DNA of 59,538 nucleotides, filler included, from Dugesia japonica (GCA_001938525.1; 5 parts of 5 records of this genome joined end to end with filler, not necessarily neighbours in it); one strand, 5' to 3'. Positions 2,091-59,538 are shown, counted from the whole stretch's first letter. Numbers and translations are program-made. Notes: a model not told the origin generated them from the letters alone.

Positions 2091-2259
2091 CTCTAAAACC
2101 ATAGATGAACATACGAAATTTGTAATTGTTACGTAAGAGTGTATTGCGTTATATATTTAATTATATATTTGATTTTCTAACCCTCTTTTATTAAATTTAA
2201 ATCATTCTATTGAATACAGATATACCACAATTGATTTTCTCATTGTTAAATTATTTTAG

Positions 2260-6894: not shown

Positions 6895-7092
6895 TATGAG
6901 GAAATAATTATTATTTNNNNNNNNNNNNNNNNNNNNNNNNNNNNNNNNNNNNNNNNNNNNNNNNNNNNNNNNNNNNNNNNNNNNNNNNNNNNNNNNNNNN
7001 NNNNNNNNNNNNNNNNNNNNNNAAATAAAAAATGTCTAACAATATGAATTCTGATTTGCAAAATGAATTAACAATTGAAGATTTACCTAACA
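6895..7092 (+). repeat. 5' LTR
   Basis: Matches 10282-10473 on both sides of the N gap; ends CCTAACA directly before the PBS. Confidence 0.9.
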
Positions 7093-10000
7093 TGGTCGAA
7101 GCGGTAAATACAGATTCTATTACTGAGAGGTTATTACCAAAGATATTCTGCAGAGAAGATGATATTGAGAAATTTATCAAGCGTTGTGAATTGTATTTTG
7201 GTGCTAAAAACATCACTCATGTGAAACAACAGGAGAGATTAGTCTCTTGTTTGTTAGATGAAGATTTGTTGGAAGAATATGCAAAGACGTTGAAAAAAGT
7301 TGAAGGTTTTCAGGTTCGTTTACGTATGGCATTTGAGAAAAAGAAAGATGTTATCAAAGATTTCAAAATTTGATTAACTTCAGGCAAGGAAATGAAGAGA
7401 TTCAAGTTTATTTTAAAAATGTAAAAGATTTAGTAAAAAGATTATTTACAAATAAAGATTTTACTGAAGAATAGACATGTGNAACAAAGAAAGGAAAAAC
7501 AAAATATTGAATGTTGGTCATGTCATAAGATCGGTCATACTAAAGCAAGTTGAGGAAACAAAGAAAGTAGTAGAATGCTGGAGTTGTCTTAAAACAGGAC
7601 ATAAATGTTTTAGTTGTGGAAAGGTTGGCCATATAAGAAGGTTATGTCAAGAAGTTAGGTGTAAACAATGTGGTAATGATGGACATAAGGCAGAAGAGCG
7701 CTACACAAATTTTAAAATGAAAAGAACTACTGAGAAATTTATGACTGCAGAAAGTCACGAAACCGATATAATCGATGACATGCAATTGCAGATGAAGATG
7801 TCAGTACAAACGATGGATATGAGGAAGTATAAGAAAGTGTTTCCGAAAGGCAATACCCAAAAGGCAAAACTCCACCATTAGAGGAGTTGGTTGGAGCCAT
7901 CCATTGTTAAATGAAGTTAGTAATTATCCTCAAGGAGTCGAAAAGTGGGATGATATAGGAGAAATTACAGAAAAAGTATACAGGTTCTTAAAGAGGGAAA
8001 ATTTTGCAAATGATAGAAAAGTAGAATGGGTTGGAACAGTTGAAGCAGAAAAGAAAACAAATATTTCGTACTACAAATTGCAAGGCAGACCAAGTATTAC
8101 GGTATCAATTCAAGGAAAAAAAGTAGAATGTCTATTAGATACAGGGGCTGGAATTAGCGTGATGAATTTGAGTTGTTTTAATAAATTACGTGATGGAAAT
8201 TTAGAAATGAGTGATGAAAGATTGCATTGTGCAAATAACAGTGCACTTAAAATTGTTAAGAAAGTTAGAACCGGAGTGATAATTGATGAAGTTTGCAAAG
8301 AGATTACCTTCTTAGTTGTTGAAAGAGTAACACCAGATCTGATAGGAGGAATAGATATGCAGAGAAATTTTTGATACCAGCTTATGCGAAAGGTCGATAG
8401 TAAATCGGATTAAAAGGTCGAAAATTACATTTGCAATATTGAAGCAAAATTCGGAAGACAAATTAAAAAAGGAGAGCGATTGACAAGAGCTTTAAATATT
8501 ATGAAGATTAAAGAATATCAACGTTTATTGAAACAAATTGAAAGTAAAGAAGAAGCTTTTATGGCAAATAAATGGAATGTAGGACGCACACATCCGATAA
8601 GACACAAAATTATCAGAAGTAGTGAAACAATCAATGTAAAATCGTATAGAAAACCAATGAACGTAGAATCTAAAATTGAAGAAGTTATCCAAACTTTTTT
8701 CGAGAATAATATTATTTGAAAATGCAACTCTCCATGGAATACCATACTGATATGGGTTTTTGGAAAAAGAAAAAGAAAGACATAAGAATATGCTTAGATT
8801 TTAGACAATTGAATGCAGTAACAAAAAGACAAGCCTTTCCGATGCCTAATGTCGATGAAATGCTGGACAAGTTAGATGGAGCCAAATATTTCAGTTCAAT
8901 AGATTTGGGAAATGCATACTATCAAGTAGAGCTGGAAGAAGAATCTCAAGAAAAAACGGTGTTTTCAACGAAACATGTGCAATATTTTTTTAATAGAGTG
9001 CCATTTGGCATCGCAGTAGCACTATAGACATTTCAAGAGATGATGACAAAAGTGGTAGGCGGAATCAAAGGAGCCATGGTTTATCTTGATTACATACTGA
9101 TATTTACGAACAATAAAGATCAACACTATGAAGTAATTGAAAGAGTATTGATGGAAATAATGAAGGCTGGTCTAAGAATTAATCCAGAAAAGTGTCACTT
9201 TCTTCAAAGTGAAATCAATGTCAAATGTCACATGAAGATGCCAAGAAAGGGAAGATTAAAACGAGAATACTGAATATAATTGAAAAGGAAAAAGAAGATC
9301 ATTTAAATATTTCTGAGGAAACAGATTTGATCAAGAAGATGACAAATTACATGAAACAATAGAAGAAATACATAAATTATTATGTTATGCAGGAGTTGAA
9401 AATGTGTACGAATATATGAGGAAAAAATATATTGCAAAGAATTTGTGCAGCCAAATACAGAAGATATTTCGAAATTGTTAAATTTGTCAGTAGACTAAAG
9501 TAGTGACAACACCAACTAAAGAGAAGACAAAGAGTTAGAAGCTACAAATTTGTCTGAAGTGATATTCACAGATAAATGTAGGGCAATGAGGGGAAAAAGT
9601 GGACGGAAAATATACATTCTTGAAATAATCGACCAATACAGTAAATATCTGGTTCTTATACCATTGCCTAGACAAGACGAGGAAANGATACGAAAAGCTA
9701 TTTTTGAAAAGTGGATATTGAGATTTGGATGTCCAAGAGAGATAAAATTAGATTGTGGAATCCAGCGTTTGAATCCAGAGTTATGAGAGAGTTTGCACAG
9801 TAGCTAGATATTAAACTTTGCTTTTCGAGTCCCTATCATCATAATGCAAACGAAAAAATTGAGAGACAGTTCAGGACAATTTGAGATTTGATTAATGCAA
9901 CACTTCAGGAAAGAAAGTCAACAGATTGGGAAGATCTTTTACCGGAAATAGAATTTACAATGAACGCAACCAAACAGAAGACGACTGGAAAGAGCCCGGC

Positions 10001-10281
10001 TGAGATTTTATTTGGAAAGAAAATTAGCGGAGAAAAGTAGTATGAGTCAGAAGTTTCAGAAAGAGCTAAAGAAAACCCTTCAGACGTGATTACTAAAAGA
10101 GAATTCAAAGTGTGAGATATAGTACTCATCCAGATAGAAACAAAACATAAAACCCAAGACAGATTTGAAGGACCCTATCAAATAATTGAGAAAATTCATG
10201 AAAAGCGGTATGCGGTACAAGAAGAAAATGGACAGCGATTAGAAAGAGATGTGGAAAAACTTAGAAAGTTTCTTAAGGGGA
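7032..10281 (+). pseudogene. Gypsy gag-pol remnant (zinc knuckles, protease, RT, integrase; RNase H deleted)
   Basis: CFSCGKVGHIRRLC, LLDTGAGIS, RICLDFRQLN, SSIDLGNAYYQ, YLDYIL, IIDQYSKY, SPYHHNAN; many stops and frameshifts. Confidence 0.95.
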
Positions 10282-10473
10282 TATGAGAAAATAATTATTA
10301 TTTATTAATTTTGAGCCAATAGAAATTGAGTTAAATCTGAATAAAGATTTTCTAAATACTATTAAATAATCATTTCTCTTATTAAGTTTAGTTTGTAGTA
10401 GTAAAATAAAAAATGTCTAACAATATGAATTCTGATTTGCAAAATGAATTAACAATTGAAGATTTACCTAACG
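10282..10473 (+). repeat. 3' LTR (192 bp)
   Basis: Follows the PPT; direct repeat of the 5' LTR; followed by the AATTA TSD. Confidence 0.9.
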
Positions 10474-11583: not shown

Positions 11584-11683
11584 NNNNNNNNNNNNNNNNN
11601 NNNNNNNNNNNNNNNNNNNNNNNNNNNTTAATTAATTAANNNNNNNNNNNNNNNNNNNNNNNNNNNNNNNNNNNNNNNNNNNN
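11584..11683. other. Artificial scaffold join (44N-TTAATTAATTAA-44N); same at 29735-29834, 41015-41114, 49225-49324
   Basis: Identical 100-bp layout four times; the 12-mer has stops in all six frames. Confidence 0.95.
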
Positions 11684-40360: not shown

Positions 40361-41014
40361 TGTTGGGGTTCCAGCTGAGAAGCGGATAGAAAAATTATGG
40401 CTGGGGGAATAGACAGCCCTCAGTGGACCCCGCGAAGTATTTAACCTAAAGTCCCTGTTTTAGGCCTTCAGTGCAGAGTCGTTGACTTCCAAAGTTTATT
40501 TGGAGTGAATACTCGTGCACCTTTAATTTGGATTCGAGAATTTCCACTCAATTCAAATTCACGGAAGCAAAGACATATGATTTACAAACATTTATTTTAC
40601 AAATACTTAATAGCTTCAAGGTCAAGCCATTGGGCTGGCTCGTCATTTAAAAAATCAAATGTGACCTCATCATTATCACTGTTCTACCTTGTCCATGTCT
40701 CCAATTGGAGACAGGAGGACAAGTCAGCAATATATTGTTTGAGAAAGTTGACTTTATTCCTTAGTTGTAGGTTTGTATGGTTCACGATTGCTAATTGTTT
40801 CTTATTTATCAATTCTAGTTTTTGAATAAGTCGATTTTTCTGAGAAAAAAGTCGCAGAAGGGACCGTTCGCACTTTTTCGAATAGTGACTCTCGATTATG
40901 AACTTCATCAATAATTTATGGCAGCGTCGTAGAGAATTGAGTAGTCTAACTCTTGGCACTAAATACGAGAATATTAACTAGGAATCGAATAAGAAATAAG
41001 TAGAATGATTTACT
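40361..41014 (+). mobile_element. Unclassified TGTTGGGG-terminated element, copy 1
   Basis: About 170-nt terminal region homologous to 56064+ and to the reverse complement ending at 53077. Confidence 0.8.
40597..40958 (-). pseudogene. ORF-A, coiled-coil/acidic accessory protein (one premature stop)
   Basis: PRVRLLNSLRRCH...KVNFLKQYIADLS...FDFLNDEPAQWLDLE; TTTAG acceptor before it, AATAAA directly after the stop. Confidence 0.75.
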
Positions 41015-41114
41015 NNNNNNNNNNNNNNNNNNNNNNNNNNNNNNNNNNNNNNNNNNNNTTAATTAATTAANNNNNNNNNNNNNNNNNNNNNNNNNNNNNN
41101 NNNNNNNNNNNNNN

Positions 41115-42527
41115 TATTGAGGTTATGTCCCCAGTCGTTAGAAGAAGAAATATTAAATCTGAACCGAAGGTTGAGCTAAAACTCCTGCTTTGCCACCTCC
41201 TAATCGTCCTGTTAAACAAGTTAAAACAACTGTTCATGAAAATCCTGCCTATTTTTCTAAGCCTATTGATGTGAAAAAGGAACCCCAGTAATATCTTGTA
41301 CCTGATTGCTTGTTTTTTGATACTATGGTTTCTGATGATGATAGTTTATTTAATAAGCCTAGTACAAAGCAAGAGTCTACTTCATTATTGAGACGTCCTG
41401 GGGATCCTGATCAGAAAATTACTCGGCGTCGAACTTAGACATAGCCTACTCGTTCGGTATCTAATCCGGTTGCATATCGTATTCAATCTATTAAACGTGC
41501 AATAAGTAAGTTAAAGACACTTGTTTTTCGGCCTATTGGTGTTAATCCTGGTGCAATTCAAAGATTATTTAAAAGATTTAGAACTGTTACTCGTCCAGGG
41601 CGTAGTCATCATGTTACAACTGGGATGGCTCAAGATCTATTTGTACAGGCTTTATTTCCAGCTGTTATATCACTGACAACCTTTCAATTAACTCCTGAAG
41701 ATGCAAAATTTTAAGAGTATGTATCTAGGGAATATGCTAAGCATGCTGAAAAGTTGGCTCCGTTTAAAAAGCAGAAACGTATATTGGAATATAGTTTAGC
41801 TCATCCAAAACGTATACCTTTATCATCCAAATTATTGCCATTGCAAACTTTAACTGTTTAATCTTTTGGTCAGTTTATTATGTACTTTAATCAGCGGTTG
41901 CGTAATTCTTAAAATGTGAATGAAATGTTACGTGTTTTGATTGCTTTATTAGAAGCAAAGAGGTAAGTTCCTTATACTGATTGGCAGGAGTTGGCTACTT
42001 GTATTAAGCAATATATAACTGATTACTTAACTGTTGATATATCGCATGATGAGCGTTTACGTGTTCAAATGGATCTAGTAATGTCTCGTCATAATATAGA
42101 ACAAGTTACTGAAGCTGTTGAATATGATGGTGAGGAACCAGCTCCTCCTCCTGCTGAGTCTCCCATATCTATAACTGCGGGTGTTGGTGGTGGTGGTGAT
42201 GAGTCACCTTCTGAAAAAATTCCGCCAGGTGTTTCAACTGACCTGCCTGTTAAAAACGAAGATAATACTCATAAATGTGACTTTTAAAAACAAAGGCTTA
42301 GTTCTATTGCTTTAAATATACTAATTAATAAAATTAAGCGTGCTCTAGATCAAACTACTTATTATCAGCCGCCGAGTATAAATTCTGAATCTCTTGTGTC
42401 GTCTAATAGTCGTACTAGACAACGTTTTACTAATAATCTAACTGAAGCTCAAACTGTTATTCAATTTATTCGTTTAAGAAGATATTTTGGTAAATGTCCG
42501 CTGTGCAATCAGCATATATTGGCATAG
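41115..42527 (+). pseudogene. Unknown ~460-codon Pro-rich protein remnant
   Basis: One long frame with about 7 scattered stops, strong NNT codon bias, ends GKCPLCNQHILA*, AATAAA downstream. Confidence 0.7.
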
Positions 42528-42790
42528 AGTTGAGTGCGCCTATCAAACAATAATAATAAAAATAATAAAAATTTATACATTTATACATAATATTCTTTAA
42601 TAATTAATTTGATTCATTTTAACAATGATGTATATATTTTGCAATTTCTTTGATAATTTCATGACAATCCAATGACTTAAATCCAAGAATCACCACTTTT
42701 TCCTTGGCAAAAACCTTGACACATAACGGTTGGCAGGAAATAATTTTGGTTCGAACCAATAATTTAATACACTGATCAATTTATAGAAAT

Positions 42791-43105
42791 TCACTCCCGT
42801 TCAAGATCACATGTTACAGCAATTGATTGAATACCATCTATTTGGATATTGACATTTTTCCAAGTGATTTGTTTATCCGTGATTGGTTTTTTGCATTCCA
42901 TGATTTGACATTTTCTCAATTCAAAAACAATTACTGAATAATCTTTCATTTTTACTACACACTGTCTGGGTATCTTACATGTATTAAATCGAAGATCTGA
43001 AAAAGAACCAATTAGATGAGCTCTGTAATTAATATTTGATAACATTGTTTGACAAATGAGCAATAACCATGGGCTTATATACTCTTTTTGTATAAACAAA
43101 TTCAT
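42791..43105 (-). CDS. Hypothetical Polinton accessory protein (probably truncated by stops)
   Basis: 104-aa ATG ORF divergent from the ATPase; no recognised motif. Confidence 0.35.
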   Translation of the reverse strand: MNLFIQKEYISPWLLLICQTMLSNINYRAHLIGSFSDLRFNTCKIPRQCVVKMKDYSVIVFELRKCQIMECKKPITDKQITWKNVNIQIDGIQSIAVTCDLERE

Positions 43106-43129
43106 TTTTATGGTTTCTGTAAAATGTAA

Positions 43130-43750
43130 TTACAAAACAACGCGGGTTTTCAAATGGTCGGTCCCAGTGGAAGCGGCAAAAAATTATTTATTTGTAAATT
43201 ACTACTAAGCAAATTGTTTCAAACAAAGTTTAAACATATTTATTGGCATCAAGGTGGTGGAGATGAAGCCGATTTGACTAATGAAGAATTTTGCAAGTTG
43301 AGAAAGATTACGATAATTAATGAATTCGATGATGAATGGTTAAAGAGATTAAATACTGGGGATGTTATTCTAATTGATGACTTCTTCCAAGAAGCAAAAA
43401 AGCAGGTTGATTTTAATAATCTCTTTACAAAAACTGTACGTCATGGTAATGTAACTGTCATCTTCATCACTCAAAGTCTTTTCCATCAAGGTGGTATGCA
43501 TCGTACACATAATTTAAATGTCCATTACTTGGTTTTATTCAAACATCCACGAGATCAAACTGTGGTTGACTATATTTCTCGTCAAGCATTTCCACAACCA
43601 AAAGGTTTTTTATCTGATGCATTTTGTAATGTTACTACAAAACCATATGGATATTTTTTTATTGATTTTACCCAACAATGTCCCGATGATGAACGAGTAA
43701 AAACCGATATATTCAATTTAGAAGTTATAGTTTACAAACCATTGGTATAA
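43130..43750 (+). CDS. FtsK/A32-like DNA packaging ATPase
   Basis: Walker A GPSGSGK, Walker B VILIDD, RHGNVTVIFITQ, KPYGYFFIDF; 5' end probably frameshifted. Confidence 0.92.
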   Translation, partial: LQNNAGFQMVGPSGSGKKLFICKLLLSKLFQTKFKHIYWHQGGGDEADLTNEEFCKLRKITIINEFDDEWLKRLNTGDVILIDDFFQEAKKQVDFNNLFTKTVRHGNVTVIFITQSLFHQGGMHRTHNLNVHYLVLFKHPRDQTVVDYISRQAFPQPKGFLSDAFCNVTTKPYGYFFIDFTQQCPDDERVKTDIFNLEVIVYKPLV

Positions 43751-43789
43751 ACAAAACTAGTACTTAATAAAGGAAACAAGATTTTGAAT

Positions 43790-44280
43790 CGATTTAAAAA
43801 AGTTTTCATCAAACAAAAGGGTGCTAGTGATGCTGGTAATTTGAGACTTTTTTCACGAAATATTACATAATTTAGGGCAATTTTAAGAGCTCCATTAGAT
43901 TCTCGATAGCAAATCTTGAAATTAATGCCGGCATTTGTCATGAATGATTTCATTAGTGTTTTGCCACAAGTTGTTTTGGGCCGAGTCAATGTAGGTCACA
44001 AAAGTGGAAAAGTTTGATTGAAAAAATATCAAGAGGCTCTTGTAGATATGGCGAAAGCAATAAATTTGGCATAAAAAAACGAATATTTGAAAGACATATT
44101 CCTATACAAAAAGAAATCAAGAAGAAGAGCAAAAAACAAGTTTATTATGGACAAAGTGGAATTGAATTTGTTTGGACTGCAATTTTACCCATTCTAGGTT
44201 TATTAGGTAAAGTGGCTGCAACCAGTGCAGTTGTGGCTGCTACAGGATATGCTACAAAGAAAACTATTGATTCTGTATAA
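43790..44280 (+). pseudogene. Cupiennin-like core/membrane-lytic protein
   Basis: NDFISVLPQVVLGRVNV, LKKYQEAL, QSG then FVWTAILPILGLLGKV; stops and frameshift. Confidence 0.7.
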
Positions 44281-44389
44281 ATAATTTAAATTCGTTTCAA
44301 TATTGCAATATAAATGGGTGTTGCACCTTGATATTATATTCCAGACATTTCACAAAATATTCTTTGTTGTATTTCGCGCGATCAAGGTG

Positions 44390-44971
44390 ATGGAACGACG
44401 ATGGTACAATCCGAAGGACCCGGTTGAATACGCTGGTATTTCAAAGCTTGCAAATGCGGCAAATGTTTCGGTAAAAGAGACGATGAAATGGTTAGGTAAT
44501 CAGTTGGCATATAGTTTGAATATAATAATGCGAAAATGGTTTCCAATCCGGAAATATATTGTTGCTGGGGTTAATAGACTATGGAAAAAGAATTTGATAG
44601 AAGTGATTCCATATACAAGCATAAATAATGAATATCGATATATTTTGACATGTGTTGATGTGTTTAGTCGATATGCACGCGCAGTTCCAGTAAACGGAAA
44701 AAATATTTTGTTGGCTTTGACGGCAAAGTTCAAAGATGTTCATCCAAAAGCTATTAAACCGATTTGGGTAAAATGTTTTACAATACTCAGGTCAATTCAT
44801 TACTGACAAAATATAGCATATTGCATTACTCAGTATTTACTCAGTACAAGGCAGCTCTAGTTGAGCAATTTAATTGAACATTACGCACACGATTAAACAT
44901 GTTATTTACGAAACAATGTAATAAAAAAGAATACATGTTTTACCAAAAATAATTTATGCATACAACAATTC
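44390..44971 (+). pseudogene. Retrovirus-like (rve) integrase of Polinton
   Basis: YNPKDPVEYAG, YILTCVDVFSRYA, TDLGKMFYN, KAALVEQFN*TL; 3' part deleted. Confidence 0.92.
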
Positions 44972-45059
44972 TGATATTTATAAAATTATTCATCAAATAT
45001 TTAAATAATTTGTTATAGATTCAAAGTTTAGACTGGTCATGTTTAAATTACTTGATAAT

Positions 45060-45446
45060 GTTTAATATGTATCATTTGATGATAATCTTTTGCTAATACT
45101 CAGTCTTTCTTCTGCAAAATTCAACAGGTCTATAGAACAAGAAAAGGGTTTGCATAAACTGCTATTACATGGTAGTATTAGACAATTATATATTTACTCA
45201 TCGATTGTCGATCCAAATTTGGTTGGTGATGTACGCGTGTCGCTTTTAATGAGTATATAGGTTGATAGTAATAAGCATTCATTTGGTGATGTTGTACATG
45301 TGAGACTTGAAAATCCAATGTACTTACCTGTATCATCATCATATATCAACAAAAATGAAGGAAACATACGTGATGATGCCAGAAGATTGATTAATTTTCC
45401 ATATGGATCAAAGACAAGTTCAACTCTACATTTTCGTCAAGTATAA
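45060..45446 (+). pseudogene. Penton / minor capsid protein C-terminal part
   Basis: LYIYSSIVDPNLVGDVRVSLL, PMYLPV, IRDD, TLHFRQV*. Confidence 0.88.
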
Positions 45447-45479
45447 ACAATTTGATTACCACGTGATTCATTATTGAAA

Positions 45480-45881
45480 ATGGTTGATCGAGCTATTATC
45501 ACAATGTATAGTCGTCCACAAATAGGTAGAGACGTGCAATATTTTATCGGTAGTCAAAAACAGCAAGGTGGTGAAAATTGACTGCATAGAATTAGACGTT
45601 TTTCAATTCCAATTTTGCAGAAATTTGGACTTCCAATTGCAAAGTCAGTGGGGCGAGCACAAATTAAAGCTCTTGATGATGTTATCAACAAGAAACAGTC
45701 ATTTAAAGAATCAATCAAAAACCAAGCAATGAATATGTTGCCGAATGTGTAGGAAAATGCATTTAATGCATTAAAGGAAGTGGTTGATGGACAGCATGGC
45801 AGTGGAACACGTAAACGGAAAAAAATAACATCGACTATAATTAAAAGACGCCGATTAGATGGAACCATCTTTGCAAAATGA
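45480..45881 (+). pseudogene. GasderminX-like basic core protein
   Basis: QQGG, RRFSIPILQK, KSVG, FKESIKNQ, QHGSG, basic tail; stop overlaps the hexon ATG (ATGA). Confidence 0.75.
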
Positions 45882-47118
45882 GCGTGTATGCCAGAAAAAC
45901 TGAATTATCGCTTTTTGGCCATAATATACCATAAATTGTTGTTGGAAACTCTACATTCTACAAACGATTCTATAACTAGGTATGCTGGACAACAAATTGA
46001 GTTCAATATTATTCGTTCAGATAATGATTACTTGAATTTGAATGATACGTTGCTTATTAATAAAATGAAGACAGTAAAGCGTGATAGAACGGGTTTTGCA
46101 TCAACTGATACTACCAACATGATTTCTTCCATCTACTTGCTTCACACTATATTCAAATAACATAATTAACACTAAATAATGTAAAGTTTGAAGATACAAA
46201 TGATACGTATATTAAAAGGCGGTAATTGAATCCGCATTGAATTCTGGATCGGATACAAAAAACACTTTTCTTGAAGCCATTAGTTATCGTAAAGAAGATG
46301 ACAAGAGAAAGAGTTGGATTAAAATGTCTACAAAGCTAAAGCTCTATCGTGCACTTAATTTGGATTTCTTTGACCAACCAAAGTATTTGTTGCAGGAAGT
46401 CAATGTGACAATCAGATTGACTAGAAATGTGGATTCGGTAATGTACAAATATACCAAGGGTACAGAAACAGTTGAGATGAATCCACAATCGTACACTATA
46501 GAAGCAAAATTGGTACTGCGACGTGCTCGTATTGATCAGTTGGTTAGGATTGAACATCGTCAAGGATTGGAACATCAAAATGCAATTTATATTTTCCAGA
46601 AAACAAAAATCGTACATTTTACAATTCTGAAAAACTCACATGGGGAATATAAAGATAATTTCTTTACCGATGAACCATTACCGAAATTTGTTTTGACTGC
46701 TTTCCAATTGGCAAAACAAGCAAGTGGTGATTACCGTTCATTTTGTTCGACATTCTCAAATTTCAGTGTAAAGTCAATATGCTTGGCGAGAAATGTTGAT
46801 TATCGAAAAAACATATACTACTACTTTGATACCCACTATACGAAGGCATATATTCAATCGATTATTCGTAATATGGGTCTGTTAAATGTTGATCTAAACA
46901 ATGGTTTTACACTGAAGGAAATTAAAGACTCGTGTACGTTTTTCACATTTGTATTGGCTTTAGACTTTGCAGTTAATCAACCGCAATTGCCAAAAACCGG
47001 AAATTTCAAGTTGGATCTGCGATTTCATAAATCCTTGACGGAATCAGTGACAATGTATGCATATGGAGTATTTGATTCGGAAATTAAAATCAACAAGAAT
47101 GGAGTAGTAGTTGTATAA
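45878..47118 (+). pseudogene. Hexon / double jelly-roll major capsid protein
   Basis: KTELSLF, IEFNI, YLNLNDT, DFFDQPKYLL..V.IRLTRN, LPKFVL, GNFKLDLRF, YGVFDSEIKI; stop and frameshift in the 5' part. Confidence 0.92.
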
Positions 47119-47187
47119 ACACTACATAAATTTATGTGTGTATTGCATAGCATGAAGTATGTATTGTTTTTATAAAGAGAATGTAAT

Positions 47188-47523
47188 AATAGTACTTTCT
47201 AGATTGAGACTATACTGAGACGCATACGATTCAAAGGATTTTATCCACTTGAATGATTACCGCACTTTTTACAAAGCGGATTCTATGTAATCAATACACA
47301 TACCTCAAATTTAGATGGTGAGTATTATATTGCAATTCATGTCAAACCAAATATTATTCGTGTATTTGATCCAATGGGCATGTTTTATCCACCATTTCTG
47401 GTAAGAACGTTTTTGCGTATGCAACAACGTGAATACAATCAAATCATGTATCAGAATTCATTGAAATTTTCCTGTGGACAATATTGTATTGAATAGCTTA
47501 AAAGCCAGTATGAACAATTTTAA
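47188..47523 (+). pseudogene. Adenain-like maturation cysteine protease
   Basis: VINTH..DGEYYIA (GEHW decayed), FDPMG, YN..YQ..SCGQYC. Confidence 0.85.
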
Positions 47524-47547
47524 TATGATTATCAATAAAATTTTAAA

Positions 47548-48002
47548 ATGTCTGTGTTTTTTATTGATTATGAAACCTTTCAGGATAATAATGCCGAAGG
47601 TTTAATTAAAAAGATATGCATAATGGATGTGAATTATATTCTTCAACCTTTTTATTTCATGTTTGCCATGGCGGAATCAATGGGCAGTTTATCAAAGTCT
47701 GCTCTCATCATCTCAGGTGGGTTGATGGAGATTTTAAATTTGATATAATTCAAATTCTCAATGACTTGCAAGCAATTTCTTATGATGCATTGTTTTATGT
47801 GAATGACCAAGTGAATGGAAAGAAAATCAATACTGTTAAAGATATTATCCCGAGGCTTCGAATTGCCAATTATAACTCAAATGAACAATTACAATTATGT
47901 ATACCAGATAATATTTCTTGTTCATATTATAATCATGGGGATTATTGTGCTTACAAAAAATGTTTAACACTTTGTATACATTATCTATCATCATGTAAAT
48001 AA
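47548..48002 (+). pseudogene. Small DEDD-like exonuclease-fold protein (frameshifted)
   Basis: FIDYETF..LIKKI, HHLRWVDGD, C-terminal CSYYNHGDYCA. Confidence 0.65.
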
Positions 48003-48037
48003 ATATTTCTTTTGCTTTTTGGCTATTATTATTAATA

Positions 48038-49224
48038 TTAGGTTGTCACATATGAAATGTCCGATTTTAGAACTCGTTTTTTAACTAATGTATTTTCATG
48101 TAATGTTTAACATTTAGAACTTATTTATATATCATTTTGAAGGTAAAATATTTGATTATCATGTTATAATATTTGTTTTAAAAATCTATATTTTAAAATT
48201 ATTTTTAGACAGCATGGAACACAAGCTAAAAAATACGGAAATGCAAACATTATTTTTTTATGAATGGAAATTAAAGCATAACCCAACAGTAGCTGCCTGA
48301 AACATTAATTTTGCATTTAAAGAGGGTTTAGCTAATGAACGAAATGTTCGGAGATGGTTCGAAAAATTTCAAAAGGGTGATTTAACCCGGGTCAATATGG
48401 AGAGTGATCGCCCCGGGATTGTCATTAGCAACGACTATGTAAAACGTGAAGTGGAACTAAACACTAGTCCATCAGTACGACAACTTAGTAAAACGTTAGA
48501 CGTTAGTCATCAAACAATTTTCGGTAATTTAAAGGCATTGGAAAGAAAAAAAAGATTGACCAATGAGTTTCTCATTTATTGAATAATTCCCAAAAATCGA
48601 AAAGATTGAAAATTTGTCAAATGCTGCTGGATCGAAATAAATCGGAATATTTTTTTAGATTGCATTGTCACTTGTGATCCAAAATTGGATATTCATCACA
48701 ATCGTAGACGTTCTGCACAATGATTAGATGCCGATCAACCTCCTTTACACTGTCTTAAACTGGATTTTCACCCGAAAAAGACAATGCTAACAGTTTGGTG
48801 ATCTATAGCTGGAGTCATACATTTTTCTTTGTTTTTAAGAAGGTCAAACTATTACCTCAGACAAATACTGTTCTGAAATTGAATTAATGCATTAAACATT
48901 ATGCATTAAACAGCCTTCATTGGTGAATAGAAAAAGAAATAATCCTCTTGCATGATAATGATTGACCACATGTGGCAAAGAAGACGTCGCAAAAGTTGAC
49001 AGACTTAAAAATTGAAACTTTACCATATCCACCATATTTGCCCGATTTATCAACGAAAGATTAACATTTTTTTAAGCATGTTGATAATTTTTTGGTTTAA
49101 AAAATCATTGCTGATCGGGAGCATGTCCAAATGGCCATATCCGAATTCATAGACTCCAGAGAAAAAAATGTTTTTGCTAATGGTATTTTGAAACTAGTTT
49201 CTAGATGGCAAAAAGGTGTAGAAT
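48038..49224 (+). mobile_element. mariner element (cecropia/Hsmar1-like), degraded
   Basis: TA followed by TTAGGTTGTCACATATG TIR; ATG at 48214; VRRWFEKF, IVTCD, HDND*PH, PPYLPDLSTKD. Confidence 0.93.
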
Positions 49225-51138
49225 NNNNNNNNNNNNNNNNNNNNNNNNNNNNNNNNNNNNNNNNNNNNTTAATTAATTAANNNNNNNNNNNNNNNNNNNN
49301 NNNNNNNNNNNNNNNNNNNNNNNNATAAAATATACTATTTCGATGAGAAGACGAACAAGTTTTATGAAGAACAAGAAGAAGATGAAACTTTGAACAAATA
49401 CAAAAATCTTCAAAGTCGTGATATTTTATGAATATCAGTTCAATGGCATTTTTGTTTCCATAAATATTTTTTTCGGTAAGATATTCATTTGAATACCGTT
49501 TAGAAGATTTAAATGTTCAACATTAATAATTTTTGATTTTTAAAATTTTCAATATCTTTTGAGTTGTTAGTTACCTTTTTATTTTTTTGTAACTTTTCAT
49601 TAACATTCATTGTATACTGTATTCGTAACTTTTTCTTTAGATTTTTCAAACTTATTGCACATTTGACAAATATTTGAAGTTTTGATCATATTTTAACTTT
49701 TTCAAAATTTNNNNNNNNNNNNNNNNNNNNNNNNNNNNNNNNNNNNNNNNNNNNNNNNNNNNNNNNNNNNNNNNNNNNNNNNNNNNNNNNNNNNNNNNNN
49801 NNNNNNNNNNNNNNNNNNNNNNNNNNNNNNNNNNNNNNNNNNNNNNNNNNNNNNNNNNNNNNNNNNNNNNNNNNNNNNNNNNNNNNNNNNNNNNNNNNNN
49901 NNNNNNNNNNNNNNNNNNNNNNNNNNNNNNNNNNNNNNNNNNNNNNNNNNNNNNNNNNNNNNNNNNNNNNNTTGAATAAATTATTGATTTTGAGAATCTT
50001 TATTTTGAAATTCTTTGTGAACAATAAAGTCTCTTGATAAAGTGGATGTTGGTGTTCTTCATTATTATTGAGAAATTTATCAAAAATTGATTATTGTAAA
50101 TTTCGGTCGAATAATAGGAATTGATTTTTTTCGTGTTGTTTTTCTTATGAGAAATAACCTTTTCTTGTGAGTTTTCGTTTGTAGAGTTAATCTTTTCGCA
50201 CAGGCCTTGAATGGCAACGTGGAGAAATTCAATTGATCGTTTTAAATTATTGTTGAAAATTTTTGGCATCTGAAACGGTCTCGCCAAAGACAACTAATAG
50301 CGTACCTATTATTTCATGACCTGATCCTGTCACCCCACAAAACCGACCTGTGGTGTTTTGAGGAACTATTTCCGCTGCAGCCTGACGTCGATCTAGATTT
50401 ATTTTATTTTTATCTTATTTTTTTAATTGTTTGCATTAATTAAATAAAAAAATTTTAAGTTATAAATAATTGATGAAATTATTATTAACAAATTATGTTT
50501 TGGTATGTATCACAGCTAATACCACTATTTATCCTTTTTAGTGAATTACCAATGGGTACGAGTTTGGGACCGCTAAATTCGGCCGGCAGTTTTCAAGCGA
50601 TACACCAACCCTTTCAATATGGACGCCGGCGTATTGTCGGATCGGTCTATTCTGCCTGCTGTAGAGGTGGTAGTTTGAAGGATACCGGATTTTTACGAAT
50701 GGCAGAATTATTATTCGTACCATTTTGTCCCATCGCAAAGTTTAGTTAGCCAGTTTTTGTTCGGGACTCCACCAGCTCTCCCTGCAATAAGGGCAGCTAT
50801 CGATAACTTATTATGGAGTGCCCGAAACCACGACAAACATAGAAAAAAACCGAAAATTTTCAAACCCAGGAGAACTGATTTTGCTCGTTGTTTTGTTTTT
50901 AATTAATTTCTACCTATGTAGTCTGATAAAGAGTCTTGTTTTTTCTGAATTAAGCGTTCTAACACCTGTCGTTCGGCAATCAGTTTTAATTAGAGATTCT
51001 ACTATCGTTTGCTACTTTTTATTTTTAAGAGAATTCTGAATGATAAAGTGCTAGGCAGTGGGTTTTCCGTAATAATTTATTAGGATTAAGCTTGATTGCA
51101 GTAATCGTAAATCCATTATTTATGATAATTTCTTTTAG

Positions 51139-51487
51139 TTCATTCTTCGCTTAATTGGTCTGTCGCTCTCACCAAAAATTTCCGCAAGGATAGTAAACAT
51201 AGAGAAATGTCATGTGACCTCTATCGTTTAAGCAAAAAAAGTAGGAGGCCCTTACCACCACCGCTAATAGTAAGGTGAAGCTGTACAATGATAAATGTCA
51301 CGCTTACAAACTTGAAGCTGAAGCTACACACGCACAACAGCGCGTGTGGAAGCAACAGTAAGAAACGTTTGCCGATGTCATCCAGCCCCTCCATGACCGA
51401 GAAAATAAACTGGTTACTTATCTGCTCAACATGCGGAGACGAATTCCTTTGTAGCTGCTGATAGTAGATAAAGCTACCCAAACCTGA
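51139..51487 (+). pseudogene. ORF-B, helical accessory protein ending DKATQT
   Basis: DLYRLSKKS...RVWKQQ*ETF..HDRENKLVTYLL..VDKATQT*; homologous to 56867-57222. Confidence 0.75.
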
Positions 51488-51598
51488 AATTGATTATTTA
51501 AATGTTTTTCTTATAAATAAATCTTTCTGTATCATCCGCCTTAACATTTTTTGATTATTTAGTCTTATCTTGTTGTTTTTAATTTTATTCTCTTTTAG

Positions 51599-52832
51599 TA
51601 CCTCGAATACGATTATTAAATAGTCGAGTTGTCACTGACTGATTCACAAGCTGCTTCTAGAACGTCCTTACGCTAAACCGAATGAGCTCACCCTGCTACG
51701 CCACCTGGCCCAACGTAACTGGCTCATTAAAAAGCTAGATATAATGGTAAAAAATGACGATTTGGCTCACAGTGTAGGGTATTTAACTCAACAAAAGTTT
51801 ATGGTTCGTATAGTATAGTTATAAATAAGATAACTGTAAGATTGTGTGTGATTTATCTTTTGAAATATTGTTGTTATTCAATGTATGTAGCTACAAANNN
51901 NNNNNNNNNNNNNNNNNNNNNNNNNNNNNNNNNNNNNNNNNNNNNNNAATGTATGTAGCTACAAATACTATATAGACGATATTTTATCAAAATATAAATA
52001 TGGTTATATCTTGTATACTTCTTGATATAAATGAATAAGCAATCACCTTTTCAAAATATTTATTTTGGATATATATATGCTTAACCTTATAGGTAATAAT
52101 TTATTTAATGAAGGAAAACCACTTAAAGAAAGAGGTTTCCTTAATTAAAAATTTTCTTCAAAACTAAACTGACATACGTCAGTATTTATAGTAAAATTTA
52201 CACTAGGCATCATGCAATGACTTAGTGATTATCATTCCAAAATTCAAAAATTTTTTACTTACATAATAAAATTCCATTAAATCAATTCATAAATAATAGA
52301 ATTTTCCATAAAATTTTCAGACAAAATATATCAATCAACAATTCCGATTAAACTTCAAATTAATTTACAAATAATAATAAACATTAATAAAATTTTCAGG
52401 TTTAGATAATGTTTATACAATAAAGCCGAAATAATTAAACAAAACCGAAATTAATTTACAATGTCTAAAATCATAATAATAAAATGTAATGTCAGCATAT
52501 TTGAGTTGGATTGATTGATCTTGATTTGAGGACNNNNNNNNNNNNNNNNNNNNNNNNNNNNNNNNNNNNNNNNNNNNNNNNNNTTTTGAGTTATATTACT
52601 CTGCTTGTTTATTGTGTGTTGTGTGTATTGCATGCTTGTATATTCAAACCTCAACAACAGGACTAAACAAATGCTGGTCAACAAAAAAGATTTTTTAAAC
52701 CAATATATCGCTGACCTATCCACCTGGCTGGAATTAGAAAGCTCGACAAGGTGGAATAGTGACGATGATTTGGTCGAATTTGATTTTACAAATGACCAGT
52801 GGCTTGAATCTGAGGCGCTAAGTTTTATGTGA
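51599..52832 (+). pseudogene. ORF-A, split by a ~0.9-kb insertion (51753-52640)
   Basis: PRIRLLNS..LLRHLAQRNWLIKKLDIMVK // SNLNNRTKQMLVNKKDFLNQYIADLS..FDFTNDQWLESE. Confidence 0.75.
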
Positions 52833-53155
52833 ACAATTATTTGTGTAAATAAAATTTTTTATTAAGTAATTGTTAACTTTGCTCTTGATTACCAGATTAG
52901 TATAGTGGAGAAATATTGAAGTTGTGCGAGTGTGTACTTCAATTAAGCGTTGAAAGTCAACCGCTCTATACCGAAACACTAAAAAGGGACTTTAGATAAA
53001 TTCTTGAAAGGGTTCCCTAAAGGCTTTCGTTTCCCCAGACATATTTTTCTACACCAAACTCAGGTGGAACCCCAACATTATTATCAATACTTTTCTCTGA
53101 ATGCTTAATCGTGCAACTACATTTTCAGCAGTCAGCTGCATAGCTAAGATGTTGC

Positions 53156-56063
53156 ATGATTTCAGTTTATGTCAAGCGATGCAAAGTGTATTTTGAAAGT
53201 AAAAACATCACTCAGATGAAACAACAGGAGAAATTAGTCTCTTGTTTGCTAGATAAAGACTTGTCTGAAGAATATGCAAAAACGTTGAAAAAGGTTGAAT
53301 GTTTTCAGGCTCTTTTACCTATGGCATTTGATAAAGAGAAAAAGTTTATAAAAGATTTTCAAAATTTGATTAACTACATGCGTGAAAATAAAGAGATTTA
53401 AGTTTATTTTAAAAATGTAAAAGATTTAGTGGAAAGGTTATTTACAAATAAAGATTTTACAAAGGAAAAAATGGTAGCAAAGATACTAGTTTTTGGTTCA
53501 GATAGCAAAAAAGTTGAAGAACAAGTTACTTGGTGGAAACGACAGAATGTAGAATAAATTGAAGAAACAATGACGTTAGTAGATCAAGTAGGGAAAAAAA
53601 GAGATCGAGTTGATGCAATTAGAAGTTACGTGAGAGTTACAAATCAAAATTATCAGAAACCGTTAAATCATACAGTGAACAGACATGTGGAGCAAAGAAA
53701 TGAAAAACAAAATATCGAATGTTTATTATTATTAAGATCGATCATACTAAAGAAAATTGTCCAACAAAAAAAATGGTAGAGTGCTGGAGTTGCAATAAAA
53801 CAGGACATATAAGTCGAGACTGTCCAAACAAAAACCAACAAAAGGTTTTGATTGTGGAAAAGATGGCCATTTAAGAAGGTTATGTCAAGAAGTGAGGTGT
53901 AAACGATGTGGTAATGGTAGACATAGAGCAGAAAAGTGCTACACAAATTTGAAAATGAAAAGAACCAATAAGAAATTTATGACTGCAGAAAGATCAAGAA
54001 ACCCATATAATCGAGTACAAGCGAATGAAGATGAAGATGTCAGTACAAACGATTGATATGAAGAAGTATATGAAAGCGATTCCGAAAGGCAGGGCTCCAC
54101 CAGTAAAGGAGTTGATTGGACCCATCCATTTTAAATGAAGTTAGTAATTATGCTCAAGGGGTCAAAAAGTGGGATGATTTCAGAAAAGTTACGAAAAAGT
54201 ATACAGGTTCTTAAAGAGGGAAAATCTTTCAAATGAGAGAAAAGTTGAAAGCAGAAAACAGTTTAAGCAAAACAGAAAACAAATATTTCGTACCATAAAT
54301 TGAAAAGCAGACCAAGTGTTACGGTATCAATTCAAAGAAATAAAGTCGAATGTCTATTAGATACAGGGGCTCAAATTAACGTGTTGAGTTTGAGTTGCTT
54401 TAATAAATAACGAGAACTAAATTTAGAAATGAGTGAGGAAAAATTGCGTTGTGCAAATAATAGTACACTTGAAATTGTTGGGGCAGTTAGAACCAGAGTG
54501 ATAATTGATGAAGATTGCAAAGAGATTACTTTCTTAGTTGCTGAAAGAGTGGCACCAGATCTGATAGGAGGAATAGATATGCAGAAGATTTTTGGATATC
54601 AGCTTATGCGAAAGGTTGAAAGCAAAGCGTTTGAAAAAGTTGAAAATTATATTTGTATTATTGAAGCAAAATTTGGGAGACAAATTAAAAAAGTAGAGCG
54701 ATTGACAAGAGCCTAAAATATTTTGAAGATTAAGACGGATCAACGGTTTTTGAAAATAATTAAAAGTAAAGAAGTTGCTTTTATGGCAGATAAATGAGAT
54801 GTAGGACGCACACATCTGACAAAACACAAAATAATCACAAGTGGTGAACCAATCGATGTAAATAGTATAGACAACCAATGAACTCTTCTTGGAATACCCC
54901 ACTGATCTGTGTTTGGAAAAATTTAAAAAAAGACATAAGAATATGTTTGGATTTCAGAAAATTGAATGCCTAATGTCGAAATGCTGGACAAGTTTGATGG
55001 AGCCAAATATTTCTGTTCAATAGATTTTGGAAATGCATACTATCAGGTAGACCTCGAAAAGAAAAACAGCGTTTTCAACGAAACACGGGCAATATTGTTT
55101 TAATAGAATGCTATTTTGCATTGCAGCATCACCAGGGACATTTCAAGAGATGATGACAAAAGTGGTGGGCGGAATCAATGGAGCCATGGTTTGTCTTAAT
55201 GACATTCTGATATTTACTAACAATAAAGATCAACAATATTAAGTCATTGAAAAGTATTGATAGAAATAATGAAGGCCGGTCTAAGAAATAAATCAGAAAA
55301 GTGTCAGTTTCTTCAAAGCGAAATCAAATTTCTTGTACACATAATTAGCAGGGATGGTGTTAGAACTGATCCGTCTAAAATAGAAGCAATAAGATTACTT
55401 GGAAAACCTAACTGTGTGAAGAAGTTACGAATTTTCTCGAGAATTTGTAATTTTTACATGAAGTTTATAGAAAAATACTTAAGAAATTCAAAGATATTAG
55501 AGCAGTTGCGTAGCGGATCAAGCAACAAGAAATTAGAATGGACAGATAAAATAAACGATACTTTGGAGGGTCTAAAAATATATCTAATGACTGCACCAAT
55601 ATTTTGTTTTCCGGACATAAACAAAGGATTAATATTAGATACAGATGCCAGTTTTGATACAATTGGAGCAGTATTGTTACAGAATGAAGGAAGAGAAAAA
55701 GTTGTTGCCTATGGATCACACTCAATGACAAGTCATGAAAAAGGATACTGCATTACACGAAAAGAGTTATTGGCATTTTATTATTTCTGTATGCATTTCA
55801 AGCATTACTTGTACGGTAGAAGATTTATTCTTAGAACAGATCACAAAGCTCTAACTTTCATGATGACAACAAACAAACCAATTACGCCGCAATTTCAAAC
55901 ATGGATTAATTATCCGAGCAGTTTAGATATGGTTTTGGAATATAGAAAAAGAATTCAAAATGCAGATATGTTATCTAGACCAAGATGTGAGGGATGTGTA
56001 CAATGTCAAATGTCACATGAAGAAGCTAAGAAAGGGAAGATTAAAACGAGAATACTGAACATA
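53156..56063 (+). mobile_element. Ty3/Gypsy gag-PR-RT-RNase H remnant, same family as 6895-10473
   Basis: High similarity to 7178-9270; RNase H motifs ILDTDASFDTIGAVL, ITRKELLA, RTDHKAL, NADMLSR. Confidence 0.95.
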
Positions 56064-56312
56064 TGTTGGGGTTCCATCTGAGTTGATGATGGAGAGAATA
56101 AACTGGCCGGGGAAAAACGATCCTCAAGTGTAACCCGTCAAGAATTTAAATCTAATGTCCCTAAATTAGATATTCAGTGTAGAACGGTTGGCCTTCAACT
56201 TCATGTGAGGTTCACACTCCTACACTTTTGGTTCGGGTACGTGATTATTTCCCTATTATTTTAAAGTATCAAAAAGTAAACAACAGATTACTCAAATTAT
56301 ATTGTTTCTAAA

Positions 56313-56690
56313 CTACATTCCATCTAGATCCTCCGGGTCTAACCACTGGGCAGGCTCTTCGGGTATGAAATCGAATACTAAATGGTCATCCTGATCGTCC
56401 CAGTTGAGACACGTTTCATTGCCTAACTGGCGGGATAGGTCGGCAATATACAGTTTCAAGAATTCGACCTTGTGCTGCAGGACTTGTTTTGCCTACTCGG
56501 CTAGGTTATTCTGCTTTTTTACTATTTTGTCTTATTTCTTAATCAGCATATTCCTTTGAGCCAAGTCTTTTAAAAGAGCCCTCTCGGTTTGACGTTTGAA
56601 ATGCGATATATCCATCAGTACTGGCTCGGACCAACCATCAATTTCGTCGATCCGCCTGCATTACCAACTCCATCGTTCACGGAGGATTAC
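56313..56690 (-). pseudogene. ORF-A homolog
   Basis: SHFKRQTERALLKDLAQRNMLIKK*..KVEFLKLYIADLS..FDFIPEEPAQWLDPE. Confidence 0.75.
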
Positions 56691-56866
56691 GAGAATCATT
56701 TTTTGAGCGAGTGATTCAGCAATTATAAGACCTCCAATTATTCATTTTAAAGCTGTAATACTAAAGGTGTCACGGATTTTTCTGAGCTTTTTTTTTAATC
56801 TTTTTATTATAAATAATGTTCAGAGTTGTACTAATAAAGAATTTATATCTAAATCTTTCATTTAAG

Positions 56867-57222
56867 TTAATCAATTATGAGCGAAATCCACTGTGTTTAC
56901 TAGTAAACCGCTTCATGACGACAGTGATTACCAAGAAATTACTTGGGAGCTGTACCGGTTAGCAAAACGCAGCTGAGAAGCACAGGATTCAACAAAGAAG
57001 TCAAAAAACAAAGTATACAAGAAACGTCGCGAATTCAGGGAGAAAGCCGCCCTTTCTTATGATAAAGAGCGCCTCTGGAAGGCCGAACTTGAAACTTTCT
57101 CTGAACTTTTACACCAGTCGCATGACCGGGAGAACCGGATAGTGGGATATGTACTGAAATTAAAATTTCAAGTACCAATAAATCCATTAATGATAAATAA
57201 AGCTACACAAGCTAAATTCTGA
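56867..57222 (+). pseudogene. ORF-B homolog
   Basis: ELYRLAKRS*..RLWKAELETF..HDRENRIVGYVL..INKATQAKF*. Confidence 0.75.
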
Positions 57223-57389
57223 TGACTTTTTGTAATTAAATAAATTCTATGTAGAACATTTTTGAATTTGCTATATTTTATTTTAAACCTCTAATTTACT
57301 CTATTAATTTAGTGCCAATGCGTACTCAGCAAATTCGGTACGCATGTGTCACTATTGGATTAGTTATTTGAGCAGTTTAGATATAAATA

Positions 57390-58255
57390 TTTTATATAGA
57401 AAGGATCGTTTCATACAAATGCGGATATGTTGTCAATGAGTAAATGCGATACATGTGCACGACGTCTAATGTCCCATGAAGTTCCCAAAAGTATAAAATT
57501 AAAAATAAGGATGTTAAATACAGTAGATATCCAATAGAAGCAAGACAATTTTGAAGAAAATGATGAAGTAACAAGGATACAAGGATACTCCATCTATTAT
57601 GTCATGCTGGAGCAGAAAAGTAGCAAAGTATATGAAGCATAAATACAACTCGAAACATTTGAGGAACAAAGTACAAGAGATTGTCCGAAGCTGTATAACA
57701 TACCAGAAAGCTAAAGTGTTGTCAACAAAAAAGAAGGAACAAACGAAAATGACACAGCTAGTTAAAATGTTTGATTTGTTATTTATATATGTGTGTGGAG
57801 ACAAAATATATAGGAGACAAAAAAGATGTTTTCGGTATAATATATCAATGCATTAAGTATGTAGTTTTGATAGCAATGGCAAGACAAGACGAAGATACCA
57901 TACGGAAGGCAAAGTTCGGGTGTCCGAGAGAAATTAAAGTTGATTGTGGAAGAGCATTTGAGTCTAAATCATTAAAAGATGTTGCAGCTGAACATAGATA
58001 TACTCTCAGGATTTTAAGTCTATATCATCATAACACAAATGGACAAATCAAGAGACAGTTTAGAACTGTGAGATATGATAAATGCGACGCTTAAAGAAAT
58101 GAATTCCTCAGATTGAGCTGATGTATTGTCGGAGATAGAATTTACCTTGAAGACTACAAAACAAAAGATCACTGGAAAAGATCTACTGAAATCATATTTT
58201 GAAAGAGAATAAGCAGAGAAAAATGGTATGAAACAGATTCTCAAAGAGAGCAATT
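57390..58255 (+). mobile_element. Gypsy integrase remnant (another subfamily)
   Basis: NADMLS, HLLLCHAG, SCITYQKAK, FGCPREIKVDCGRAFES, YHHNTNGQIKRQFRT. Confidence 0.88.
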
Positions 58256-59538
58256 TTCGATTTTTTTATGTCATTTCACCGTCGTTAACACTGGTTCCAT
58301 ATAAATTTATCTTATCATAGCTTATGAATTTCCCTTACATCACATCGCTCGTTTCTTTTATGCATTTCTACTCCGTAAGTCTCATCACTTATTTACCCTT
58401 CTTTCTTTTACTACACAATTCGAATTTTGCAACCCATCTTGCTTATTTAATAGACCACATACTTGCTATAATTATTTCTCGACCAAAACCTCTTTCACCC
58501 AACCTAATTAACAGCACTCTTTCGTGCTGCTAGCTAAGAATGAATAGACAATCTCGTCGTTCATTAATAAATTATCACATAACAAACAATTAATAAATTT
58601 TACTTTCTTTTGATACGTCTGTCCGATTGTTAGCAATATTACCACTCAGTATTTTTAACAATAAATTACTGAGAGTTTCATAAATGAAATTTTTAAGAAA
58701 TTGATTTTCTGAAAAATGCTTTTTTTTTATACTCCACTGTTTCGTCAAATTTTGACTAATACAGTTGGTGCCAACTTTAGATTTATGTTAATGCAAGAAT
58801 TGTACGGTTCTCACCCGTAAATTCTACAAAGATGCCCAAATATGGTCATGATTATTTTTATTTTTTGTTAATTCTGTTACGGATTAGGTGCTCACAGATG
58901 TTCTATGTTTTTCCTCACGTGATCGGCTTATAAAAATAATAATTTTCTGAAACTTTTAAGAGTTTTAAAAATAAAGATAACTACACAATCACATGCAAAA
59001 ATGAACATATCTATCCCGAATTCTTACATAAAATCATCTTCTACATATAACATTCCTGTTATAATTTCTTCTTGTTCATTATAAATAATAATATTTATTG
59101 AATAATAAGTATTTTAATTATATTTATCGATAATAATAATAATTTCATATTTAATTATAATAATAATACAATTCTTCTACTTAAATCTGACGAATAATAC
59201 AATATTTTATTATTTATAATGATGATGATGATGATGATGATTCATTTCGCTTTGCTTTTCCTATCATTTCACTTTAAAATATCAAAATATTTTAATTTAC
59301 AGTTATTTGTAGTTATTTGTTTTAATCTTTCCTTTTATCTCATCAATATAATTTTTTTTAATATATAAATACTTTTAACACATTTATATAAATTATAAAT
59401 AATGATTTATATTTCTTGTTTTATTTACATTCTCCTTTTCGATCACTAAAACAATTTGATTTATTTACTGAGTACTATTTTATCTTATTAACTTCGGAGC
59501 CATATAATTATTAATTATCTTCAATTACTATATCTTTT

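Follow-up and report, generated by a model that had tools for sequence, protein, structure and literature searches.

What kind of mobile element leaves the same TG-initiated end several times over in planarian DNA, and do the small open reading frames (ORFs) that point at these ends belong to it? The question arises from a 59,538-nucleotide stretch of Dugesia japonica DNA (GCA_001938525.1), hereafter the window, in which a preliminary description had noted three such termini, each accompanied by a conserved small gene, ORF-A. The window consists of five scaffold pieces set end to end by four artificial 100-base joins (11584–11683, 29735–29834, 41015–41114 and 49225–49324), each made of an N run, a spacer with stops in all frames and a second N run; adjacency across these joins is unverified. 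Another N gap, at 51898–51947, is false, its flanks being joined by two contigs in DNA run X1. We find that the termini mark a real, high-copy, unclassified family of TG-ended elements, which is present here only as broken, nearly silent relics. This agrees with the earlier proposal of an unclassified TG-ended mobile family with selected genes: a neutral ratio of nonsynonymous to synonymous change and a match to a known family were both looked for, and neither was seen.

The three ends lie at 40361 (+), 53077 (−) and 56064 (+). The element end sequence is TGTTGGGG, and its 19-nt terminus matched exactly at all three positions; it did not occur in any of 100 shuffles even with three mismatches allowed. 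As previously described, the copies are diverged, with a DNA identity among them of 62–68% over about 400 bp. Moving inward from the terminus, the first 160 non-coding bp are 62–81% identical and the next 80 bp 38–56%, after which identity rises again within ORF-A, where third codon positions fall to 23–55%. The terminus and subterminal non-coding block occupies 40361–40597 (+) in copy 1, with the first ~160 bp conserved, and 52833–53077 (−) in copy 2, while the terminus of copy 3 spans 56064–56312 (+). The flanking sequences, available on one side only, are CATT, ATAA and CATA. A profile of the terminal region detected no fourth terminus in the window.

Copy 3 reveals where the element begins. 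Its terminus directly abuts a decayed Ty3/Gypsy gag-pol relic (53172–56063, +), which also lies 94 bp from the terminus of copy 2. A sister copy of this Gypsy at 9216–9300 continues into integrase at the very point where copy 3 begins, and contigs leave the window sequence at 56063 as the sister copy does (81 loose ends in run X1 and 90 in run X4). Since both the sister copy and the contigs continue beyond 56063, the TG at 56064 marks an exact insertion edge, copy 3 having inserted into Gypsy pol directly after 56063. The adjacent Gypsy possesses its own long terminal repeat (LTR) of ~190 bp and a site resembling a primer-binding site (PBS), and is therefore the insertion target, outside the TG-ended element, and not its owner. 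The earlier statement that no transposase or pol is attached thus holds for transposase but needs amending for pol, as a decayed gag-pol does adjoin, though as a target.

ORF-A points at each terminus and stops 237, 245 and 249 bp from it, close to the distance of about 240 bp reported before, and the protein motifs quoted at that time are present. None of the ORF-A copies is intact. An ORF of about 120 residues at each terminus had been described; this is accurate for copy 1, whose exon at 40597–40958 (−) runs for ~119 codons from an acceptor-like site with one internal stop, while copies 2 and 3 are shorter and broken. Copy 1 is cut by the scaffold gap at 41015. Copy 2 (52644–52832, +) retains only the last ~62 codons and has AATAAA downstream. 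Copy 3 (56313–56615, −) comprises 100 codons from its ATG, contains two internal stops and lacks the 5′ exon part found in copies 1 and 4 (best scores of 26.5 and 24 vs 33–33.5 for true sites). The preliminary description had overlooked copy 4, a 5′ half of ORF-A at 51599–51800 (+) with an acceptor-like site at 51599 and one frameshift, which is cut by an AT-rich repeat from ~51797. A single interrupted gene made up of copies 2 and 4 was considered and rejected, since several codons are represented in both and differ between them; we count them as two, with some doubt. A further ORF-A start had been placed at 57313. It is homologous to the 5′ exon start of copy 1 (2 of 385 TT[TA]AG-anchored 46-nt windows reach its score against copy 1, which by construction should be copy 1 itself and 57313), but it is a mere stub (57313–57352, +) that lasts ~40 bp before being cut by a Gypsy RNase H fragment. 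At this junction of stub and second Gypsy fragment we also observed a stable hairpin (57310–57355; z −2.9, 0/200 shuffles).

A second gene, ORF-B, had likewise escaped notice. In copy 4 its exon lies at 51139–51487 (+), starting at an acceptor-like site at 51139 and carrying one frameshift and two internal stops; in copy 3 it lies at 56867–57222 (+), running for ~118 codons from an acceptor-like site with two internal stops. AATAAA is found downstream of both. The two are homologous (tblastn E 2e-15), and in both copies an ORF-A start follows about 90–110 bp after ORF-B. Copy 4 therefore reads B then A, and copy 1 joins the same A start to a terminus. Copy 3 is arranged head-to-head: from the terminus it presents ORF-A directed toward that terminus, a spacer, and then ORF-B with the second ORF-A start facing away. 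One relative contig (record 10) covers the end of ORF-B and the start of ORF-A at about 86% identity, and another (record 2) covers the DNA upstream of ORF-B and its first part at about 85%. Since these contigs cross the B/A junction and the upstream edge of B, the B-A unit exists elsewhere in the genome. As separate observations, a ~100-bp core of ORF-B (51330–51450) matches a high-depth family (depth 6,332 at 51386 in run X1, 102 contigs with the variant), and 26 RNA reads in run X14 fall at one position of this core; an abundant ORF-B-bearing subfamily elsewhere is suggested.

Both ORFs carry a coding signal. The ratio of nonsynonymous to synonymous differences per site (pN/pS) was 0.33–0.56 in all six pairs compared (five ORF-A, one ORF-B), with bootstrap upper bounds of 0.56–0.85, the alignments having been built on protein in the annotated frame, which favours low pN. 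In each of the six pairs third positions were the most diverged and the annotated frame gave the lowest pN/pS among six frames. Synonymous sites are saturated in four of the pairs, and the corrected ratios of the other two are 0.27 and 0.30. We take these sequence comparisons to indicate that ORF-A and ORF-B were under purifying selection in the past. An open antisense frame over ORF-A was dismissed as a shadow frame, its pN/pS exceeding that of the sense frame in 5/5 A pairs.

The margins of the ORFs resemble those of terminal exons. TTTAG or TTAAG stands at the 5′ edge of homology in all five exon starts that retain it (three A, two B); all five are phase 1, have in-frame stops shortly upstream and lack a conserved ATG. 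An AATAAA occurs within about 35 nt after four of five stops, compared with 257 of 2852 background 40-nt windows (9%), a count in which homologous copies are not independent; in copy 1 it begins 4 nt into the stretch scanned after the last ORF-A codon. We infer that A and B probably serve as alternative last exons, joined by splicing to an exon further upstream.

The products are predicted to be helical. AlphaFold models ORF-A as one helix over residues 2–73 (mean predicted local distance difference test score, pLDDT, 78) followed by a low-confidence acidic tail, and ORF-B as mostly one long helix (mean pLDDT 80). A1 and B3 show a peak of hydrophobic periodicity at 3.5, which is not clear in A3. 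The acidic FDF...W tail of ORF-A bears a possible resemblance to activation domains, to LIR motifs and to the FDF motifs that bind DDX6-type helicases.

Database searches yielded no relatives. None of seven ORF-A and neither of two ORF-B candidates in the homolog searches scored. A profile search of 1.84 billion representatives returned two matches at E≤0.001, both repetitive proteins aligned on the helix only, which we rejected. ORF-A and ORF-B had only sub-cutoff matches in Pfam, none of eight proteins matched PHROGs, and the PDB sequences gave only three weak helical-repeat matches. The best Atlas scores, 0.89 for ORF-A and 0.82 for ORF-B, are leads only. In fold searches the ORF-A model found nothing at E≤0.001 among viral structures, and the ORF-B model reached at best Z 7.1 against 48,161 chains, all of them generic long helices. 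Scans of viral contigs with the ORF-A, ORF-B and ATPase proteins (the last from a neighbouring gene set described below) found nothing, and the one 13-residue match in prokaryote genomes was taken as chance. The terminus pattern occurred once in viral contigs, within a phage gene, a match we discarded, and 12 times in metagenomes; none of these 13 loci has ORF-A, ORF-B or more than 24 bp of likeness. Judged by their sequences, ORF-A and ORF-B are thus orphans, with no significant match to any described protein family in the databases searched. The terminus and genes are also undescribed in the literature searched; Repbase, subscription papers and supplements lie outside it, and the element may already have been annotated as an unnamed repeat.

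The abundance of the family was gauged from DNA reads at 80% likeness over 49972–58400, a stretch that excludes copy 1. Summed contig depth, which is no copy number, was 2,066–3,043 in the terminal bins, 226–405 in those bins of copies 2 and 3 that cover ORF-A, and 7–83 in the interior of copy 3; single contigs of the element region have a depth of 4–12. The ends of the element are therefore repeated far more than its interior. RNA was sampled from about a quarter of two oligo-dT runs, whose libraries do not look stranded. RNA depth was 0 over 56154–56715, which takes in ORF-A of copy 3, in both runs, and the terminal bin of copy 2 had about 2 per direction in one run. No RNA data set was indexed as containing copy 3, which bears neither way on its expression.

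Further features of the termini were noted on the side. In all three, ATTTA is followed 27–30 nt on by TC[AG]GT (40439–40472, 52970–53001 and 56144–56178), a spacing that would suit a TATA box and initiator firing inward. A terminal hairpin was dropped as a family feature because it is stable only in copy 1 (z −2.1, −2.7) and not in copies 2 and 3 (z 0.1–0.4). Rfam had no match in the window or at two termini.

How can these pieces be assembled into one element? The account we favour, tentatively and at somewhat less than an even chance, is that they are decayed copies of a cut-and-paste DNA transposon of the integrase-like (Ginger2/TDD) type, bounded by long inverted repeats and carrying two accessory exons. 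Each end would be an inverted repeat of about 550 bp containing the last ~100 codons of ORF-A. The right arm would read B, A, terminus, as pieced together through overlaps from copies 1, 2 and 4 together with the right-hand portion of copy 3, and the left end would mirror its last ~550 bp, thereby carrying a 5′-truncated ORF-A and ending near 56620. Long inverted repeats explain why ORF-A of copy 3 lacks the 5′ exon part, why B faces away there and why ends outnumber the interior; the gap in the 5′ match of copy-3 ORF-A is expected at a repeat boundary. Like the ends of Ginger elements, the TGT end suggests a transposase of the integrase type. Such a transposase, supplied by an unseen autonomous copy, would bind the conserved terminal ~160 bp and move the element, and the mobilised elements would be mostly short deletion derivatives. 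B and A would be joined in phase 1, as alternative last exons, to the upstream exon, and their products may oligomerise via the helix. By analogy, the acidic FDF...W tail of ORF-A might bind a host factor, most plausibly blunting silencing or activating transcription.

Several observations weigh against a DNA transposon of this design. As no copy has two ends, no single element was seen to carry inverted repeats or to be flanked by a target duplication. A mirrored ORF-A or terminus to the left of copy 4 was not significant (best 16/300 shuffles, 12 tests), the upstream exon to which A and B would be spliced was not found in the window, and no transposase, including the H2C2-DDE type, is linked to these relics. 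Expression is near zero in the two RNA runs. The flanks show no clear match to RTATAY, and the repeat of ~550 bp is longer than the 40–297 bp given for Ginger families in the available part of PMC2836005. Furthermore, the conserved R-U5 of many LTR subfamilies would also give such a depth gradient, and in a region this dense in repeats copy 3 could have arisen by chance fusion.

We compared the element with known systems as they appear in the available portions of PMC2836005, PMC10045372, PMC6839031, PMC6431247, PMC11410931 and PMC8097293, to which the statements below are confined. Ginger2/TDD elements (PMC2836005) follow a TGTNR terminus rule that the TGTTG of all three termini obeys, insert at AT-rich sites like the flanks here (with a 4–5 bp duplication at RTATAY), and have non-autonomous derivatives. 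Their repeats measure 45–297 bp, in contrast to the ~550 bp, partly coding, that we propose, and the portion available to us does not mention small accessory exons under selection. Ginger1 shares the TGTNR terminus and intron-containing genes but fails on its target site, neither CCGG nor CCGT/ACGG being present in any of the three flanks (PMC2836005). GingerRoot (PMC6839031) is likewise an integrase-like DNA transposon with TA/TG ends that often contains extra gene pieces and loses its transposase; it is described with 100–150 bp repeats, a 6-bp duplication and a DDE domain, against a conserved block of ~160 bp here, and its cargo consists of host fragments, unlike the family-wide selected genes found here. 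In its proposed working the element resembles a Ginger2/TDD or GingerRoot type with cargo, membership being unproven. Of the two options in the preliminary description, an LTR or a Ginger-like DNA element, the DNA reading comes out somewhat better on the orientation of ORF-B, with Ginger1 itself eliminated.

An LTR origin is the strongest of the alternatives, even if we think it unlikely. The pieces would be the 3′ parts of multi-kb, mostly solo LTRs of an unseen retrotransposon, in which B and A are spliced U3 accessory exons with a poly(A) signal and then ~220 bp of R-U5-CA behind them; in copy 3, two relics would have become fused head-to-head by chance. This would account for the TG/CA end, for B, A and terminus running in one direction and for the depth gradient, and it suits the phase-1 acceptor-like sites at 5/5 exon starts and the AATAAA after 4/5 stops. 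Complex retroelements usually place spliced accessory exons at the 3′ side. The antisense accessory role suggested earlier would not be established even then, as ORF-A, followed by AATAAA, is more naturally taken for a U3 exon in sense orientation before R-U5-CA. Giant planarian Gypsy elements with accessory ORFs do exist (Burro; available part of PMC6431247), sharing TG/CA-type ends, accessory coding capacity and an AT-rich animal host with the present family. However, the extra sequences of Burro are placed within the polyprotein or upstream of it, no match was obtained to any Burro domain that this source lists, and the relics here are devoid of a linked gag-pol, the neighbouring one being an interrupted target with its own LTR. 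No PBS follows and no polypurine tract precedes any of the three termini, in accordance with the preliminary description as to the tract; outer edges and solo LTRs would show neither, and the tract test is weak, the control Gypsy's own tract being only seven purines. Moreover, no direct-repeat partner was found in the window, where each copy has one end, and no LTR-like start is seen at the copy-3 junction. The orientation of ORF-B to the terminus differs between copies and demands the chance fusion for copy 3; because the orientations in copies 3 and 4 require rearrangement under a single LTR orientation, a DNA element fits somewhat better.

Two other explanations strike us as still less probable. 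An A32-type ATPase and a weak rve match lie between the termini at 40361 and 53077, which face one another across 12.7 kb and might be the two ends of an intervening Polinton-like element, with A and B as its outward-pointing subterminal accessory genes. Their 5-bp flanks agree at 4/5 positions, and vertebrate Mavericks have terminal inverted repeats of 46–1,447 bp and accessory regions (PMC8097293, which in its available part deals with vertebrates only). We consider this improbable: the arms share only 67.5% identity and their synonymous sites are close to saturated, unlike two repeats of one insertion; 6-bp flanks agree at 3/6, leaving the 6-bp duplication of that group unmatched; Mavericks are described as ending in AGT, AG or AC repeats, with ORFs that are intronless where intact (PMC8097293); two artificial spacer gaps lie between ends and core; and copy 3 has no adjoining Polinton genes. 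Capture of exons from a lineage-specific host gene family by a TG-ended, Pack-type carrier, with selection predating the capture, we regard as very improbable indeed. Acceptor-like starts and poly(A) signals do resemble host last exons, and GingerRoot elements carry intron-containing host fragments (PMC6839031, available part). Against this, the distance from stop to terminus has been kept at 237–249 bp despite saturated synonymous sites, implying that gene and terminus diverged together; no expressed parent gene was found at 80% identity in the two RNA runs, and no host-type homolog in the searches made. In its boldest form, the DNA transposon with long inverted repeats would represent a new class of TG-ended DNA elements, with a coding exon inside the repeats, alternatively spliced orphan genes selected across many subfamilies, a transposase acting in trans, and ORF-A as a coiled-coil oligomer that engages a host factor for silencing or decapping through its acidic FDF...W tail, which would make it a transposon-encoded anti-silencing protein in an animal. 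For this extended version we hold out little expectation.

The relics sit in a region that is a heap of decayed mobile elements, in AT-rich eukaryotic DNA (GC 19–36% per 2-kb bin across the window). Besides the interrupted target at 53172–56063, Gypsy relics occupy 6896–10472 (7023–10472 in a narrower delimitation), 37676–39826 and 57352–58250. The first of these is near-complete; its ~190-bp LTR takes in the gag start codon and about 20 codons and is followed by the PBS-like TGG site. The DNA runs show the Gypsy family at extreme abundance (a summed depth of 134,000–315,000 over 53344–56153), and it is transcribed. A decayed gene set of Polinton/adintovirus type at 41115–48000 includes the A32-type ATPase (Pfam E 6e-5), the weak rve (E 0.06) and a broken ORF of ~470 codons at 41115–42527 without a Pfam match; the capsid, protease and other labels are tentative assignments by motif that no search confirmed. 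To its right lies a mariner-type relic (48040–49224, HTH_48 match), and a further mariner relic is possible on the minus strand near 14700–15500. A fragment at 17770–18978, between short inverted repeats (17770–17977 and 18844–18978), resembles protein-primed B-type polymerases in its motifs, with no match in Pfam or PHROGs. Host-like open frames lie at 2201–3316 (+) and 3366–4040 (−), both without a Pfam match, the latter carrying a hydrophobic stretch resembling a membrane anchor. Finally, the DNA to the left of ORF-B in copy 4 (49972–51050) is low-copy, GC-richer at 50490–51050, and has relatives in few contigs; it contains broken minus-strand frames and a faint ORF-A-like stretch at 50156–50257 (E about 10), and could belong to the interior of the element as well.

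Beyond their transposase, DNA transposons of animals generally encode little. Selection that preserved two small orphan genes in a high-copy family for as long as synonymous sites took to saturate would indicate accessory functions, for example counter-silencing or transactivation, and accessory genes of this sort escape repeat annotation because their proteins have no database relatives. If the element should instead be an LTR, it would be a further example of an invertebrate LTR that carries spliced accessory exons.

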